DNA of 32,810 bases from a bacterium. Lineage in GTDB: Bacteria > Patescibacteriota > JACMRA01. Positions 1-6,785 of this stretch are shown in pieces. The notes under the pieces are model-generated. The model did not search any database. It was not told where the DNA came from and saw only the letters and a list, made by a program, of their open reading frames with translations. How positions within the stretch are numbered: position 1 is the stretch's first letter; each line of letters opens with the position of its first letter. The stretch lies in the NCBI GenBank assembly GCA_043765655.1, contig JAYUIW010000015.1:1-32810 (forward strand), read 5' to 3'. The position numbers were made by a program, and so were the translations under genes.

Positions 1-20
1 CTAAAATGGTTTTAAACAGA

Positions 21-61
21 TTGTCATTTTGAACGAATGTGAAAAATCCCCTGTTGTTCAA
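21..61 (+). repeat. REP-like palindrome, family A (GTCATTYTGAAC...AATCCCCTGTTGTTCA)
   Basis: Near-identical to 20691-20730 and related to 20591-20630 and, inverted, 20935-20964. Confidence 0.85.
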
Positions 62-105
62 ACCTAAGGTTGTAAATAAGCTATCTTTTTAAGTAAAAAC
101 TTTAG

Positions 106-290
106 CTGTCATCCTGAATTTATTTCAGGATCTAAAATAGTTTTTGTTGAGTTAAGTTGCTTTTTTATAATTTACATGAATTATTGTTTTTTATAATTTA
201 CATGAATTATTGTTTTTTGTAAACTTTAAAATAATTAAGAAAGTCGTATTTGTTAGCTTTTTAGATCCTGAAATAAATTCAGGATGACAG
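106..290. repeat. REPIN/MITE-like unit bounded by a perfect 32-bp inverted repeat (family B palindrome)
   Basis: CTGTCATCCTGAATTTATTTCAGGATCTAAAA at 106-137 and its exact reverse complement at 259-290; further copies at 20646 and 20821. Confidence 0.9.
161..212. repeat. 26-bp tandem duplication
   Basis: TTTTTTATAATTTACATGAATTATTG at 161-186 and 187-212. Confidence 0.9.
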
Positions 291-313
291 TAAACAATGT
301 AAATTGAATAAAA

Positions 314-1126
314 CTACCCTACACTCACAATGATTCCCTGACGATGAACATTCCGCTCGAAGCCATAGTCTGTGTACATTTGAGCAACTGGTTTTTTGGA
401 ATTGGATAGTGTCAAAGTGTCAAAGTCTGCAAAAATTGGATTATTGGCAAACTCTCTCACTAGACTTGTACAGATTAGTGGTAGTTTTTTGGTTTTGGTA
501 AAATTATTATTACCCGTATACCTGCCCGCAACTGCCGTTAATTGCACTTCTTTCCAAGGTTTGGAGTTGTTATCGTAGCTCAAAGCACTAAGGCAGTAAG
601 TTCCCACAATTTCACCAACTTTACTCTTGACAACAAAACAGTTAATTAATTCATCTGCCAAAAGCCGTTCTAGATTATTCTCAAAAAAAGCAATCTTGTC
701 AGGTCTTGGAATGATCGCCTTGGGTTCTCGCTGAAAATAAACTCCATAACTATCAATCAAAAGTTGTTTTATAACACCATAGTCATCAGAGTTCGGTAAA
801 ACCTGAAAAGTTATGAATTCCTGTCCAAACTCCCAAAACCGCATATCACTATTAACCAAACTGTTGGCTTCATCTCGACTAATCGAAAAAAAGTGAGAAT
901 CGTAAGGCTCTATAGTAATATTTAATTCACGGGCCTGAGCTATAATCTCGAAGCACCTTGTGATATCCGCAGAAGTATAAGCATCAAAAACAACTTTAAT
1001 TTTGGTATTTTGTCCCAAAAGATTAGCTTCCAAATCATTGATAAGTTCAACAATTCTATCAAGACTGAGCCCAGAAGGTATTGTCAAAAAAACACTTCCT
1101 GCCAAGTCAAATATTGGTTGTAACAT
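314..1126 (-). CDS. Hypothetical protein with possible C-terminal GNAT acetyltransferase fold
   Basis: 270 aa ORF; CFVVKSKVGEIVG strand pattern and terminal VAQMYTDYGF resemble GNAT motifs. Confidence 0.45.
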   Translation of the reverse strand: MLQPIFDLAGSVFLTIPSGLSLDRIVELINDLEANLLGQNTKIKVVFDAYTSADITRCFEIIAQARELNITIEPYDSHFFSISRDEANSLVNSDMRFWEFGQEFITFQVLPNSDDYGVIKQLLIDSYGVYFQREPKAIIPRPDKIAFFENNLERLLADELINCFVVKSKVGEIVGTYCLSALSYDNNSKPWKEVQLTAVAGRYTGNNNFTKTKKLPLICTSLVREFANNPIFADFDTLTLSNSKKPVAQMYTDYGFERNVHRQGIIVSVG

Positions 1127-1178
1127 AATAATAATCTTGAACTAAAATTTTGTTTTTGTAAATAATTTTGTTTTTACA

Positions 1179-1216
1179 CCTCCTGTATAAGGGTTAAGGC
1201 AAAGCATTCGGGGTTG
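1179..1216 (+). repeat. REP-like family C element
   Basis: GGGTTAAGGCAAAGCATTCGGGGT resembles the reverse complement of 20745-20782. Confidence 0.7.
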
Positions 1217-1249
1217 CTACTTTTAGACGTTAAAAAGCATAACCTCAGA

Positions 1250-2800
1250 TTACTCTTCTTCCCCACTTTCTACCACTTCTTTTCTAACCAAAACATCTCG
1301 CTTGAGGCGAATCTTGCGTGATAGTTCCATCTCGTTAACGCTCAAAGTAGTTCCAGCAATATCAGTAACAATTTGGATTTGTTTGCCAACCATTGCGTTG
1401 AATAGTGAACTTTTACCAACATTAGGCTTACCAAGGAACAGAATTTTGGGAGGAAGTGGATCTTTGTTTTCTAGAATTTTGAGTTCTTTGTCTAGATTAG
1501 TCTCGCCTTGAGTATAGTGAATTGTCTTGAATCCCATAACTTTGGCAGCTTCGATATTAATTTTTTTGTCGTCCAAGAACACACATTTGTTGGCTTTGAG
1601 ATCATATCTCTCTAATAATGTCTTAAAAATTGCCATTTCTGGTTTGCGACAATCGGCTTCACAACTAGCAATGCCTCCATCAAAGAACTTATAAATCGGG
1701 CTTTGGCGACGCTTAAAAATACTATTCCCAATATTAGAAATGTAGTAGATATTTTTGCCAAGACTTTTTTGATATTTGATAAAATTACAGACTTCGATAT
1801 TTTCGGTAGCCAAATCATCCCAAAGCTGCTTGTACTTGTTGAACTCAATTTTGCGTCCTATTATCTTGTTGATTTCTTTTTTGAGATCAGCTGTGAACTG
1901 GTGTTCGTGTAGCTTTGAGTCGAATTCAATATAAGCTCTACGAATCTGGCTTTTTTGATCTAAGGTAAGATCGTAATCATTACCTAGAATCTCCAGCGAC
2001 TTATTAATTCCGTCCTCGAACACAACGTTATAAAAGTCAAAAATTAGCGTGTCTACATCATTCAGAGCCTTGTATTCTGCTTCTTCGTTGAACGATTCGA
2101 ACAGCCCATCGTTTTGACGAATTACATATGTTCCATCGCGAGTTTTTTCTACTTTTTTTAGCTTTTGGTCGATTTTGGGAGCTATATTCTTGATGTCAAA
2201 AAGTTCAGGGGCAATATTAGTATCAAAACCCATAATCGACAGTTGACTGACAATTTCGTCGCACAATTCTCCCAGATTATAGCCAGTATTACAACAGATA
2301 TTAATGAATCCATTCCCACCAAGGCGAGCATATTCTGCAATTGATTTATCTAAATTTGGATCGTCGACTTTGTTAATCGCGATGATAAAAGGTTTGCCAG
2401 TTTGCCAGATTTTCTTGATGATTTTGTCACTAATTGAATCGACATTCTGCTTACGATCGATAACCCACACCAGAAGATCAGCCTGAGCAATTGCTCCCCA
2501 AGATTTGATTTGAACTTCTTTTTGGATTTGGTCTTGTGGATCTGGAACTAGTCCGCCTGTATCTACGATTTTGAAGTAATTATTAACCCACTCGACTTCG
2601 CCGTTGTTGAGATCTCGAGTTGTATGCTCTTCCTTAGCGACGATTGCAACTTTGGTTTCGCACAGACGATTGACAAGGCTAGACTTCCCAGCATTAGGCA
2701 GTCCGATTAGTGCAACTAGAGGAATTTTGGTGGAGGTTGTTGACGGAGTTTCAGAAGAATTGAAGACTGAGCTGGAATTTTGGAGTGAATTGTTTTTCAT
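1250..2800 (-). CDS. der: Der/EngA GTPase N-terminal part: GD1, inserted HAD phosphatase domain, first part of GD2; lacks rest of GD2 and the KH domain
   Basis: GD1 GLPNAGKS, TTRD, DTGG, NKVD; HAD motifs IFDFYNV, ISN, KPEMAIF, FLDDKKINIEAA; second P-loop GKPNVGKS and IAGTT followed by TAA. Confidence 0.85.
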   Translation of the reverse strand: MKNNSLQNSSSVFNSSETPSTTSTKIPLVALIGLPNAGKSSLVNRLCETKVAIVAKEEHTTRDLNNGEVEWVNNYFKIVDTGGLVPDPQDQIQKEVQIKSWGAIAQADLLVWVIDRKQNVDSISDKIIKKIWQTGKPFIIAINKVDDPNLDKSIAEYARLGGNGFINICCNTGYNLGELCDEIVSQLSIMGFDTNIAPELFDIKNIAPKIDQKLKKVEKTRDGTYVIRQNDGLFESFNEEAEYKALNDVDTLIFDFYNVVFEDGINKSLEILGNDYDLTLDQKSQIRRAYIEFDSKLHEHQFTADLKKEINKIIGRKIEFNKYKQLWDDLATENIEVCNFIKYQKSLGKNIYYISNIGNSIFKRRQSPIYKFFDGGIASCEADCRKPEMAIFKTLLERYDLKANKCVFLDDKKINIEAAKVMGFKTIHYTQGETNLDKELKILENKDPLPPKILFLGKPNVGKSSLFNAMVGKQIQIVTDIAGTTLSVNEMELSRKIRLKRDVLVRKEVVESGEEE

Positions 2801-2810
2801 ATATATCTAA

Positions 2811-2839
2811 AGTATGTTCCCAAAAGCCTTTTTTGTCAA
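2811..2839 (-). promoter_or_regulatory. sigma70-type promoter of der
   Basis: TTGACA (2839-2834), 17 bp, CATACT (2816-2811). Confidence 0.6.
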
Positions 2840-2990
2840 AGTTATACCAATATCACTTTCAAGTTTTACAAAACACCTTCCAAAAAGCAACCAAATTCCT
2901 TTATTTCAAAATGTTTCTAGATAAAAGTCAGTCAATGTTCATATCAACTTGGATACAAATTATTAAGTTATAGTATTGATTGGTGCGCAA

Positions 2991-4187
2991 TTATTTTCCA
3001 AAAAGATTTTTGAAGAAGTTCGAAACATTATTTGAAACCTGCGAACCTTTTTTAGAAGCGTAATTCGCCATCTTTACCAGTGGATTATTACTTATATATC
3101 TACCACGTCTTTTAATAAAAATTTCTTTAGTCAAAACGTCTTCACCTCGTTTTTTCTTGTCAAACTTGGTACGATAGTCAGCAATAGCTCCCTCAAAATT
3201 AGTATATTTATCGTATTTAACACCAGTCAGATCGGCACCACGCAAATCAGCACCTTTAAGATTAGCACCTTTAAGATTAGCACCTCTAAAGATTGATTCG
3301 CTACAAAATGTATCTTGTAAATCAGCCTGACGAAAGTCAACACAATTTAAGTCACTTCGTCGTAGTTTTGCCCCTCTAAGACAAGCTTGTAATAATTTTG
3401 CAGACTGTAAATTAGCTCCATCTAAACAAGCACCAGTTAGATCAGCTTCCATAAAATTAGAATATTCCAAATTTGCTCTAATAAAATCGACTTCTCTAAC
3501 TTTAGCTTGACTAAAATTACAAAGGATTAAGCTACAACACTCAAAACTTGAACAAGACAAATCACTGTTCTCAAAACTTATTTTTCTAAATGTATATCCT
3601 CTAAAATCTCTATCTGTTGCAGTTTGATTTGAACCATTAGTAATATGCAACTTAGAATCTTTAGAACCTCTTTTGTTAAACTCAGAATTATCTTCTTCAC
3701 TGTATTTAGTAGTTTCTGCACTAATATTAATAGTTTGAGCTGGTTCAACTTTTGATTCCACTTCAGATAAAATCGGCCCGAACTTCAAAGATTGAATATC
3801 TATAGCATTAACTAAAGCAGCATTACGCTTTTCTAATTCTTGAATTTTAAAGTTGCTAATATTGTTTATTTCATATCTTTCTATAGGCTTACCTTCCTTA
3901 TCAAAAGATAAGTATAATTCAACACTTGAAGATTGTGAAGGTCGAATTTCATCAAAAACTAACATATCTAAAGTAGGTTTAGAATAACTGTCGCTAAAGC
4001 TACGCTTAGCTAAATTTGTAGCAAAATTACCTTTATCTGAATTTAGGTCTTCAGCTGTAATAATCGGCATTCCGACTGGTTCTTTACTTTTTTTAGATGT
4101 TAAAGAAGCTTGTTCTGATGTAATTTTTACTGTAGGTAATCTTGATTTAGATTGTTCTTGTTGTTGTTTTGGTTGTTCTGATGACAT
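2991..4187 (-). CDS. Pentapeptide repeat protein
   Basis: Many A(D/N)LxG-type repeats, e.g. GANLKGANLKGADLRGADLTG, after a low-complexity N-terminus. Confidence 0.9.
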   Translation of the reverse strand: MSSEQPKQQQEQSKSRLPTVKITSEQASLTSKKSKEPVGMPIITAEDLNSDKGNFATNLAKRSFSDSYSKPTLDMLVFDEIRPSQSSSVELYLSFDKEGKPIERYEINNISNFKIQELEKRNAALVNAIDIQSLKFGPILSEVESKVEPAQTINISAETTKYSEEDNSEFNKRGSKDSKLHITNGSNQTATDRDFRGYTFRKISFENSDLSCSSFECCSLILCNFSQAKVREVDFIRANLEYSNFMEADLTGACLDGANLQSAKLLQACLRGAKLRRSDLNCVDFRQADLQDTFCSESIFRGANLKGANLKGADLRGADLTGVKYDKYTNFEGAIADYRTKFDKKKRGEDVLTKEIFIKRRGRYISNNPLVKMANYASKKGSQVSNNVSNFFKNLFGK

Positions 4188-4220
4188 AATAGTTAGTGTG
4201 ATTTTATAATTACTTTTAGT

Positions 4221-4249
4221 ATTGTATCACACTTTTTTACCTTTGTCAA
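4221..4249 (-). promoter_or_regulatory. sigma70-type promoter
   Basis: TTGACA (4249-4244), 17 bp, TACAAT (4226-4221). Confidence 0.65.
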
Positions 4250-4320
4250 ATCATACTTTTTAAGTTTTCAAAACTTTTTTTGGTGATTAATTTTTATTTT
4301 TATTCCTACTCCCAAAAACA

Positions 4321-4776
4321 CTAAAACTTCTGCGTGAACCCAGATTCATTCTTGGCGAATTCCACACTAACAAAGCACACATCAGGCTTTATTTTGTCAT
4401 ACGTTTTGTATGTAGAATCGTAGAATTTGTTACCACCAGTTGTGAATTTACCTTTGATTGGATGTGTATCAGGGCATTTTGGTTCTTGGTTGGCTTTGAC
4501 CCAGTACACACCTTGGGTCGGAATAATTTTGAGATTATCAGCTTTGGTTGTTGGTTTTGGGTTGTCGATGTCTTGCTTTACAACTGTTGCAAGGACTTGA
4601 TTTATTCCAGTCTTATGCCCAAAATAAAAGCCAATTCCAAACACAAATATTATGAGAGTAATACTAATTCCATAACTTATTATTTTATTTTTGTTCAAAG
4701 TGCTAGCAAAATCAGTTACCGAGTTTTGGAGTAAGTTATTATTATTGTCTTGTGTTGGCGGAATAGCGATTGACAT
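4321..4776 (-). CDS. Membrane-anchored protein with C-terminal CP..IKG..Y..CF (sunset/Ada-like) small domain
   Basis: One TM helix; CPDTHPIKGK...Y...PDVCFVSVEFAKNESGF. Confidence 0.5.
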   Translation of the reverse strand: MSIAIPPTQDNNNNLLQNSVTDFASTLNKNKIISYGISITLIIFVFGIGFYFGHKTGINQVLATVVKQDIDNPKPTTKADNLKIIPTQGVYWVKANQEPKCPDTHPIKGKFTTGGNKFYDSTYKTYDKIKPDVCFVSVEFAKNESGFTQKF

Positions 4777-4891
4777 ATTATTAGGTGTGTTATGTTAGAA
4801 TCTATGGTTTGATTTTGGGTTTTAATTTTATATTTGTATTAACTTAGAAAGTTACAGTTTTCATATTATTCAAAAAGCATTTGTAAAAATT

Positions 4892-5836
4892 TTATCCTCC
4901 ACAACTACTTTTGTCTAGTTTGACCATGTTCTTGAATCTTGCCTGAATCTGATCTGCAGTTGGCTCTGTAGGTTGCACGAATATTACAACATCTCCAAGA
5001 AAATTATTAATACTTTTGAGCTCTTGACCAGTTACTGGATCGAGTTGTGGCTGTGTTGAAGAGTCGTTACCAAAAGAACTATTGGAACTTGTATTGTCAA
5101 CAATTTTGTTATTTAGACGCTCAGTATTTTTTTGTTGTCCGATTTCGATAAGATGTTTTTGAGCTTCGGCGTCGGTTGTGTGTTCCACTTCATTGTGAGC
5201 TAGAACTTTTATACTTGTCATAATATCACCAAAGCTTTCCAAAGCTCCATAGCGTTGAATGTCCTTGCGAACTTGGGATTCTATACCAAAAAATTGTTCA
5301 AAACTATTGTCTTTAAAATTATCAAATGTCTTTTTCTCAAAGCTCCAGTCTCCAGTCGCATTCCCTAAGCTATCCAAATTTTCTTTGCCAGTATAAATCC
5401 AAAATTGATCTTCTGATCTTGGCTTTGGAAGATCTTTACCATAGATCGGTACAGGTGTAACGCTGGGCAAAGAGTCTAACTTGAATCCCATATAGCCATC
5501 TAACCCGCCAATGTAGTTTAAGCCATAAAATTTTAGGAACTGTCCACCTGTGACATTAGCCCAGTGAAGATGTTGATAGTCTGGCTTGTTGTCATGGAAG
5601 TGCAATGGCGATGTCGTCAAAGATCCGTTACAAATATCTTTTGTATAGTCTGTCTGATATCTAGGCGAGCCAAAATCCTCTTCTTGTCCATTAAAGACGT
5701 ACTTAATCCTAAAATGTGCATGATCTTGAGTGGGAAAGGCAATATTTTCTTTGGATAATCCATAGCGAAGAGTTAGATATGTTGCACTAAGTATGAATAT
5801 AATTATTAGGAGTAATGCGGTAATTTTTTTAAACAT
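4892..5836 (-). CDS. Secreted/membrane-anchored His-rich hypothetical protein
   Basis: N-terminal hydrophobic segment; DHAHF, LHFHD and HLHW motifs; C-terminal CGG. Confidence 0.6.
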   Translation of the reverse strand: MFKKITALLLIIIFILSATYLTLRYGLSKENIAFPTQDHAHFRIKYVFNGQEEDFGSPRYQTDYTKDICNGSLTTSPLHFHDNKPDYQHLHWANVTGGQFLKFYGLNYIGGLDGYMGFKLDSLPSVTPVPIYGKDLPKPRSEDQFWIYTGKENLDSLGNATGDWSFEKKTFDNFKDNSFEQFFGIESQVRKDIQRYGALESFGDIMTSIKVLAHNEVEHTTDAEAQKHLIEIGQQKNTERLNNKIVDNTSSNSSFGNDSSTQPQLDPVTGQELKSINNFLGDVVIFVQPTEPTADQIQARFKNMVKLDKSSCGG

Positions 5837-5996
5837 ATTGAAGTAAAATTAGGTTTTTGATAAAAGTTAAAAATTGGGTTAAAAATTAGTCTAAATTAGG
5901 GAGCTAAAAATGTTATAAATACTAAAATATATAATGTCTATACTATCCTTAAATTATATTAATATTGTATTTTTTGTGCAAGCCCCAAAATATTTT

Positions 5997-6025
5997 TTGA
6001 CAAGCAAGCATAATTCAAGTAACCT
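5997..6025 (+). promoter_or_regulatory. sigma70-type promoter of the typA fragment (leaderless position)
   Basis: TTGACA 5997-6002, 17 bp, TAACCT 6020-6025, ATG at 6033. Confidence 0.65.
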
Positions 6026-6032
6026 CAAGAGT

Positions 6033-6785
6033 ATGACTGATAATATCAAAAAGCACCTCCAAAACCTTGGAATATATACCGATGTAAAGGCAATCCTCAA
6101 ACAGCTCGCCGACGGCAAAACTGATCCCAAAACTGCAAGCCAAACAATTACAACCATGATCAACGACTCGTTCAAAGTCGATACTGGAGTTAATCCGCTA
6201 CAAATTTTGGTTCTAGCGCTCAACTATGATTCATTCAAAGGAAAAATGGGTGTTGGAAAAATTATCAATGGAAGCATAACCAAGGGACAATCTATCATTG
6301 CGATCCAAGAAAACGGCATTAAAAAAGGTCGTGCTAGCTCAATTTTAACTTTTGATGGTCTCAACCTCAAAGAAATTGAATCTGCTCAAGTTGGTGAAAT
6401 CGTTATGGTTGCTGGATTAGAAGATGTAACTATTGGAGATACAATTACCACGCCAGAATTCAACAAACCCCTTCCAAGAATCAAAGTTGATGAACCAACG
6501 CTGCGAATTGTAATCGGTGTAAATACTTCTCCATTCTCTGGTAAAGAAGGCAAGCTCGGAACTAGCCGCCAAATTCGCGAAAGATTAATTAAGGAATTAG
6601 AAACTAATATTGCCCTTAGAGTAGAAGATTATCCAGGCTCAGCCGATAAATTCGTAGTCAGTGGTCGTGGAGAACTTCACCTTAGCGTACTAATCGAGAC
6701 AATGCGACGCGAAGGATTCGAACTCGAAGTCAGTAAGCCACAAGTAATCTTCAAAACAGCCTTAGAATTAGGTATTGAAATATAA
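6033..6785 (+). CDS. typA: TypA/BipA fragment with domains II and III only, plus a ~45 aa foreign N-terminal extension
   Basis: PLQILV..LNYDSFKG, IGDTI, VDEPTL, VNTSPFSGKEGK..TSRQIRERL, SGRGELHLSVLIETMRREGFELEVSKPQVI; no G domain or C-terminal domains; ATG 6033 preferred over 5934 because of promoter position. Confidence 0.88.
   Translation: MTDNIKKHLQNLGIYTDVKAILKQLADGKTDPKTASQTITTMINDSFKVDTGVNPLQILVLALNYDSFKGKMGVGKIINGSITKGQSIIAIQENGIKKGRASSILTFDGLNLKEIESAQVGEIVMVAGLEDVTIGDTITTPEFNKPLPRIKVDEPTLRIVIGVNTSPFSGKEGKLGTSRQIRERLIKELETNIALRVEDYPGSADKFVVSGRGELHLSVLIETMRREGFELEVSKPQVIFKTALELGIEI

Follow-up and report, generated by a model that had tools for sequence, protein, structure and literature searches.

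A conserved and possibly recurrent fission of der through its second G domain, best read as a two-chain Der

In the genome analysed here, der is carried as two separate ORFs that divide the protein inside its second G domain (GD2). Neither ORF holds a complete GD2, the two complement each other, and the same division recurs in related species. It is probably a real fission of der that gives a two-chain Der, with the GTP site of GD2 made up from both chains. We infer that the two chains bind each other, that the rebuilt GD2 is active as a GTPase and that the pair functions on the ribosome.

Two complementary pieces of Der

The window, the whole stretch of DNA that was analysed, is a contig stretch of 32,810 nt. 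It belongs to an assembly (G000) of 1,045,639 bases (1.05 Mb) in 84 contigs, estimated to be 74% complete. The small genome of ~1 Mb and the source names attached to homologues suggest a member of the Patescibacteria. The N-terminal piece of Der, Der-N, occupies window 1250..2800 on the reverse strand, as do all of its features below, and encodes 516 aa comprising GD1, a HAD-like insert, the first part of GD2, a tail and a TAA stop (1250..1252). In an NCBIfam search it scored 185.9 bits against the Der family model TIGR03594, below the curated cut-off of 306.7. The model matched residues 27-188 of the protein, and in a genome search its positions 162-221 also matched window 1313-1492. For a finer map we used our own Der profile of 440 positions, built from 8 full-length Der proteins of the same phylum.

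GD1 (2219..2731, residues 24-194) is a complete G domain, matching positions 3-173 of our profile at 148.7 bits and PF01926 over residues 29-144. The linker between GD1 and GD2 is taken up by the HAD-like insert of about 240 residues (1487..2218, residues 195-438), which matches TIGR01509 and, over residues 250-423, PF00702 (E 5.4e-6). Its motif I reads D-F-Y-N-V in the translation, the second Asp being replaced. Relatives have homologous inserts between GD1 and GD2 (E 1e-17 to 1e-23). The first part of GD2, hereafter the stub (1316..1486, residues 439-495), runs from strand 1 through G1 (GKPNVGKS, 1409-1432), helix 1 and G2 (IAGTT, 1346-1360) to strand 2. It covers positions 168-224 of our profile, and GD2 in Der-N stops at position 224 of the 440. 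A basic tail of 21 residues follows (1253..1315, residues 496-516), with similar basic tails in relatives; judging from the models described below, it may be a lengthened beta2 strand plus a few acidic residues. Beyond the TAA the window continues for 1.25 kb and holds another ORF, and no G3-like motif (D[ST][ATV]G) occurs in the six frames of window 1-1600.

The ORF directly downstream of Der-N (window 314-1126, reverse strand, 270 aa) matches no family of Pfam or NCBIfam at E up to 0.01, and in a second species of the genus (G001) a different ORF takes that position. Upstream lies a 398-aa ORF (window 2991-4187, reverse strand), the C-terminal half of which resembles pentapeptide repeats in its translation. 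One homologue is labelled candidate division SR1, and a code-dependent stop was considered and rejected: Der-N ends in TAA, the in-frame stop upstream of the second piece is also TAA, and table 11 gives a coding density of 87%. The 30 long ORFs of the window end in TAG (12), TAA (12) or TGA (6).

The C-terminal piece, Der-C, is a 534-aa ORF on contig C54 of the same assembly (G000:C54:14054-15658, forward strand; L001:568-2172). Its match to TIGR03594 covers profile positions 221-430 (G000:C54:14987-15619, E 1.7e-42), at 144.4 bits again less than the cut-off of 306.7. From its N-terminus Der-C consists of a HAD domain (PF00702, E 9.7e-10) with the canonical motif I D-F-D-G-V, a highly charged linker of about 90 residues, GD2 from strand 3 onwards with G3 (DSTG), G4 (NKSD) and G5 (SAK), and a KH-like domain (PF14714, residues 451-522, E 1.6e-9, 38.4 bits against a cut-off of 27.3). 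The ORF has its own ATG, an in-frame TAA 9 bases upstream of it and 14 kb of contig ahead. BLASTP gave no significant match that would point to a common origin of the two HAD domains (best E 0.11, within the G domains), and they are of different HAD types.

Together the pieces cover the family model end to end. Der-N matches positions 1-161 and 162-221 and Der-C positions 221-430, and the three matches sum to 327.4 bits against the cut-off of 306.7. The pieces meet at profile position ~221-225, the beta2-beta3 hairpin of GD2. The tandem G domains of a Der are thus present with G1-G5, GD2 being complete only across both pieces, and no single polypeptide exceeds 306.7 bits. Circularly permuted GTPases of the YlqF/RsgA type have the motif order G4-G5-G1-G2-G3. 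Here G1-G2 on one piece is followed by G3-G4-G5 on the other, a standard order that is cut and not permuted, which rules out a GTPase of that type.

The first-pass annotation, made from the window alone, had described a Der that ends cleanly inside GD2 after G1, G2, a charged tail and TAA, with no DTAG in nearby frames. The 516-aa ORF and the six-frame scan bear out this description, from which the HAD-like GD1-GD2 insert had been left unmentioned. The annotation had also predicted a complementary ORF starting just before G3. Der-C supplies the predicted part of GD2, from strand 3; the HAD domain at its head was not foreseen. An intact der elsewhere had been named as one of the outcomes that would speak against a split, and none was found: no match in the 1,045,639 bases of this ~74% complete assembly exceeds the TIGR03594 cut-off.

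Both ORFs are preceded by look-alike promoter-like sites. By consensus match, each is a putative TTGACA-N17-CATACT promoter, at window 2801..2839 (reverse strand) for Der-N, where it ends 8-9 bases before the ATG, and at L001:530-567 (forward strand) for Der-C; across the two halves the sites end 7-9 bases before the ATG. Transcripts from such promoters would have little or no leader. The pattern TTGACAAA-N8-16-GGG-N1-3-ATACTT occurs in the G000 genome only upstream of Der-N and Der-C. Much of the likeness is accounted for by a genome-wide consensus, TTGACA-N17-(T/C)ATACT, found at 21 sites, and the spacer identity of the two sites, 12/19, is equalled by 9 of 210 pairs. The likeness of the two promoters is taken as no more than a hint.

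Distribution and conservation of the split

To place the split we used a family set of 26 species genomes, of which G000-G004 make up the genus of the window, and assigned architectures from an ORF and profile map plus a family search. Nine genomes carry a split at profile position ~225 (G000-G004, G010, G024, G013 and G015), one is split elsewhere (G017), 15 have der as one ORF (G041 judged by the family search only), and in one, G022, which is 81% complete, no Der was found. In six of the nine split genomes (G000, G001, G003, G010, G024 and G015) the N stop and the C start both lie inside contigs. The N ORF of G002 runs off its contig end, as does that of G004, where the C ORF is also open at its 5' end; in these two the split cannot be proven. 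Both halves are present in eight of the nine, G013 having yielded the C piece alone.

The der of G017 is divided differently, inside the HAD-like insert between GD1 and GD2, so that ORF 1 keeps the front of the HAD domain and ORF 2 the rest (loci L052, G017:C1, and L051, G017:C9). It has additional inserts at ~225 and ~336.

The split extends well beyond the genome set. The 25 closest relatives of Der-N (54-76% identity, 488-515 aa) are all N-only and lack the KH family. Two metagenome searches returned 143 proteins (P0001-P0143), including 43 N-only proteins ending at ~225 and 21 C-only proteins starting at ~225; the remainder comprised 18 whole proteins with an insert of at least 30 residues at ~225, 58 whole proteins without one and 3 others. 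Some of the N-only and C-only proteins on short contigs could be cut gene calls. A third search added 60 new proteins, among them 32 with a HAD domain plus the C half, and 31 of these 32 HAD-headed C pieces have a motif I of the D-F-D-G-V type (DxDx(T/V)). The longest contig is 360,982 bases for both P0005 (N-type) and P0156 (C-type), and 248,878 bases for both P0011 and P0175, likewise an N-type and C-type pair. These equal lengths suggest that they are the same contigs, with both halves on one.

Within the genus, no part of the N piece is better conserved than the stub, whose amino-acid identity to G000 is 77-82%; GD1 follows with 68-72%, the HAD insert with 41-47% and the tail with 7-50%. 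The stub has a dN of 0.17-0.24 with a dS of at least 1.5 or saturated. In the dN/dS comparison across relatives, a check that the first-pass annotation had proposed, dS is mostly saturated and the ratios are rough upper bounds. Between G010 and G024 the C pieces share 96% identity, again with saturated dS. Every one of the 43 N-only proteins retains G1 and the GTT of G2 in its stub; the 21 short C-only proteins all retain G3 and G4 and lack a P-loop. Both halves are under purifying selection. Half a G domain cannot bind nucleotide, yet the half-sites are conserved, and this is our main argument that the halves still work together.

The same facts bear on a reading in which GD2 is no longer rebuilt, Der-N having become a GD1-HAD protein and Der-C a KH/HAD protein, acting alone or with other partners. 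GD1 is complete by itself, and the extra HAD domains on both pieces could give them separate roles. Constraints on Der may also be relaxed in this phylum, from some genomes of which it is apparently absent. There is no Der-level match in G022, G026, G028, G030, G031, G032 or G035, where the best matches (E 1e-10 to 1e-19) are probably other GTPases, and G028 is a single-contig genome rated 100% complete. Der may therefore be missing from parts of the phylum and perhaps not indispensable here. Separate functions would nevertheless leave unexplained why half a G domain that binds no nucleotide keeps G1/G2 in 43/43 and G3/G4 in 21/21 proteins, why the stub is better conserved than any other region of Der-N, and why the two halves accompany each other in 8/9 split genomes. 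We consider this reading improbable.

A two-chain Der also has to be set against an error of assembly or binning, or decay into a pseudogene, with the working der intact at another locus. The assembly is a draft of 84 contigs at ~74% completeness, and what it misses could in principle include an intact der. This is unlikely, because none of the five genus genomes has a match over the TIGR03594 cut-off. The window begins at a contig end in a high-copy repeat, and the contigs of three relatives end just past the N gene. The same architecture is nevertheless found on long contigs of other species: in G010 the N gene lies ~31 kb into a contig of 196,580 bases, with the C gene on a separate contig, and in G001 it sits in the middle of a contig of 38,796 bases. 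A 6,721-base Logan contig recovered in all three runs of one study covers window 262-3000 with no differences, although that study may be the source sample and so not independent. Among the listed holders of the sequence, none is recorded as RNA. The misassembly check raised in the first-pass annotation thus shows no sign of a fault, and in other species too the stops and starts lie inside contigs. Purifying selection on both halves and the uniformly N-only form of the 25 closest relatives add to the case against an artefact or decay, which we regard as very unlikely.

The high-copy repeat occupies the first ~300 bases of the window and is probably why the contig ends there. Over window 1-300 the summed contig depth is 171-6,228 (2,240-6,228 at 101-300), compared with 19-25 over most of the remaining window; all three runs show numerous short contigs and loose ends there, and the segment holds short palindromes and a tandem pair of ~29-base repeats. 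In G002 (L045, C118), G004 (L046, C173) and G024 (L048, C22) the contigs stop inside the 3' end of the N gene or within ~110 bases beyond it. An acidic low-complexity coding stretch or a downstream repeat may be the cause of such contig ends.

The hairpin site and the origin of the fission

Merged alignments, built domain by domain, place the break in GD2 between strands 2 and 3. The first-pass annotation had put it near the beta2-beta3 turn, and the alignments, the complex model and a model of an unsplit relative all locate it in that hairpin. What the annotation did not foresee is that the site is an insertion hot spot across the family, which is why the cut falls there. Single-ORF relatives carry inserts at ~225 of 70 (G014), 86 (G021), 238 (G012) and 355 residues (G025), and over the unsplit proteins of the family and the metagenomes the inserts at this site range from 30 to 356 residues. 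The insert of G025 consists of two HAD-like domains. Unsplit proteins reach 1157 aa in G012, 891 aa in G025 and 599 aa in G014.

Der proteins of the family have HAD-like inserts at three sites: in the linker between GD1 and GD2, at the tip of the beta2-beta3 hairpin of GD2, and near position 336, where GD2 borders on KH. The single ORFs with HAD inserts (L053 in G012, L054 in G006, L058 in G025 and L059 in G009), of up to 1157 aa, are filed publicly as HAD-IA hydrolases.

We modelled GD2-KH of the unsplit G014 protein with AlphaFold2 from a 21-row alignment (mean pLDDT 81.0, pTM 0.74). Two unusually long strands, at 69-84 (16 residues) and 138-153, are separated by ~50 residues, of which 104-129 have a pLDDT below 50. 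In this model the hairpin is lengthened and its acidic tip is floppy. Of the two hairpin strands the first is basic and the second acidic, and the N tails and C heads of the genus and of its metagenome relatives are charged in the same way. The HAD domain of Der-C matches the ~225 insert of unsplit G012 at 30% identity (E 2e-25), and G012 resembles the tail of the window's piece and the C piece joined.

For the history of the split we built a Der tree with IQ-TREE from 34 rows, in which the N and C rows of split genomes were merged. The merged G000 protein falls in the clade of its genus (support 100/99), inside a clade of the family and the order relative G025 (100/100). The genus is sister to G017, G012 and G006 (97/91), and G013, G010 and G024 form another clade (100/97). 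Across its starred branches the tree has at least two changes of split state. An AU test did not reject a single clade of all nine split forms (p = 0.195). Two independent fissions may have taken place, a history favoured by the evidence of the HAD domain of Der-C.

In G024 and G010 the cut is almost traceless, with tails of 7 and 11 residues and C heads of 4 and 12 residues before strand 3. These short ends matter for another reading, in which RNA trans-splicing or a split intein would restore an ordinary Der of one chain. Both mechanisms are known from microbes, and the pieces lie at separate loci, as such joining would have it. The ends in G024 and G010 are, however, too short for intein halves; over all N-only proteins the tails measure 2-70 residues, and the C heads of the short form 1-69. 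No intein or Hint family was matched in either piece at E up to 0.01. Intron halves are likewise unsupported, neither locus having an Rfam match at E up to 1, and each ORF comes with a start, a stop and a promoter-like site of its own. Joining of the halves is the least probable of the explanations considered here and has hardly any claim beside a Der that stays in two chains.

Reassembly of the two chains and comparison with known systems

The multimer prediction suggested in the first-pass annotation was carried out with ESMFold2 on our own alignments (33 rows each), pairing a stub of 70 aa with a C part of 240 aa in three runs. The median ipSAE was 0.70 against 0.15 for the best control, and in the calibration of the tool that mark is reached by 58 of 80 solved complexes and by 2 of 110 mismatched pairs. 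At least 88% of contacts are common to the three runs, and the partner has a pLDDT of at least 68. Residues 5-10 of the stub (strand 1) contact residues 22-24 (strand 3) and 54-61 (strand 4) of the C part, which puts strand 1 between strands 3 and 4 in the standard sheet order of a G domain. The confident interface also includes stub residues 42-61 and C part residues 7-32. Structures of Der as a single chain, such as 2HJG, 1MKY and 3J8G, have been solved and may be what the model reproduces, so we take the score as a measure of likeness to Der and not of binding. The first-pass proposal of a split protein that reassembles from two chains thus draws its support from the conservation of the halves together with this model.

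Taken together, these results suggest the following route. In the family ancestor the beta2-beta3 hairpin of GD2 would already have been lengthened and have carried a variable insert at the tip. This insert would have been a HAD domain in the lineage that led to the genus, and the break would have come just upstream of it. Der-N now carries GD1, the first HAD domain (HAD-A) and, from GD2, strand 1, the P-loop, helix 1, switch I and strand 2, and Der-C carries the second HAD domain (HAD-B), the charged linker, strand 3 of GD2 with G3, G4 and G5, and the KH domain. The chains may fold by beta-sheet complementation, strand 1 of Der-N entering between strands 3 and 4 of Der-C and the basic tail of Der-N pairing with the acidic strand ahead of strand 3 in Der-C. 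GTP would be held by G1/G2 of one chain and G3-G5 of the other, and on the 50S subunit the reconstituted GD2-KH unit would do what it does in an ordinary Der.

A further step is speculative and, in our estimate, rather unlikely: that the split is put to use, with GTP binding coupled to chain association, such that assembly of Der serves as a GTP-sensitive checkpoint on the 50S subunit, perhaps one that also senses metabolites through the two HADs. A possibly repeated fission, the basic and acidic zipper strands and the look-alike promoters would fit selection for such a two-component GTPase.

A P-loop G domain is here cut between switch I and switch II and still maintained by selection, and the cut form is kept in dozens of lineages. 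As a natural split GTPase it could be of use in studies of fragment complementation and nucleotide-coupled assembly. It also outlines an evolutionary route from a lengthened hairpin through a domain insert at its tip to gene fission. For annotation it carries a warning: in public sources the genes carry the labels 'HAD-IA family hydrolase' or 'small GTP-binding protein', and by family cut-offs Der seems absent or partial. In the literature searched there was no report of a split Der or of a HAD-Der fusion.

Canonical Der/EngA (TIGR03594) has been solved as a single chain (2HJG, 4DCS, 1MKY, 3J8G, 5DN8 and 6XRS), and the GD2-KH profile of the family matches 2HJG at E 4e-117. The split Der shares with it the order GD1, GD2, KH and all G motifs. 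It differs in that GD2 lies on two polypeptides, HAD domains are added and neither piece exceeds the family cut-off, whereas canonical Der is one chain. Der is among the most conserved ribosome-assembly factors of bacteria, and GTP binding by GD2 is described as the key requirement for ribosome binding (PMC2673443); on the 50S subunit, GD2 and KH are reported to behave as one rigid unit (PMC4245960). A further comparison is with the unsplit HAD-insert Der proteins of the same family (G012, G025 and G014), which are orthologues on the tree and have the same hairpin, the same insert site and homologous HADs. They are single ORFs, whereas the chain of the genus is cut just before the inserted HAD.

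Variation in EngA has been described before. The passages of PMC9791819 on this subject, citing Tomar et al. 2012, cover the GD1-GD2 linker, the length of the C-terminal tail and the CMK-EngA fusion of Bifidobacterium. Like the split Der, the CMK-EngA fusion departs from the standard EngA architecture. It and the length variants are, however, an N-terminal fusion and changes outside the G domains, and those passages describe no split or intra-domain insert. Split genes are also known from archaea: the relevant part of PMC6349945 lists reverse gyrase, tRNA synthetases and DNA polymerase I as divided into two genes in Nanoarchaeota and other DPANN. As with Der, these are essential genes of small-genome, probably symbiotic microbes that are unsplit in close relatives, although they are archaeal and encode other proteins, no GTPase being named in that part of the paper. 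The split Der is thus a bacterial case to set beside the split informational genes of small-genome archaea.
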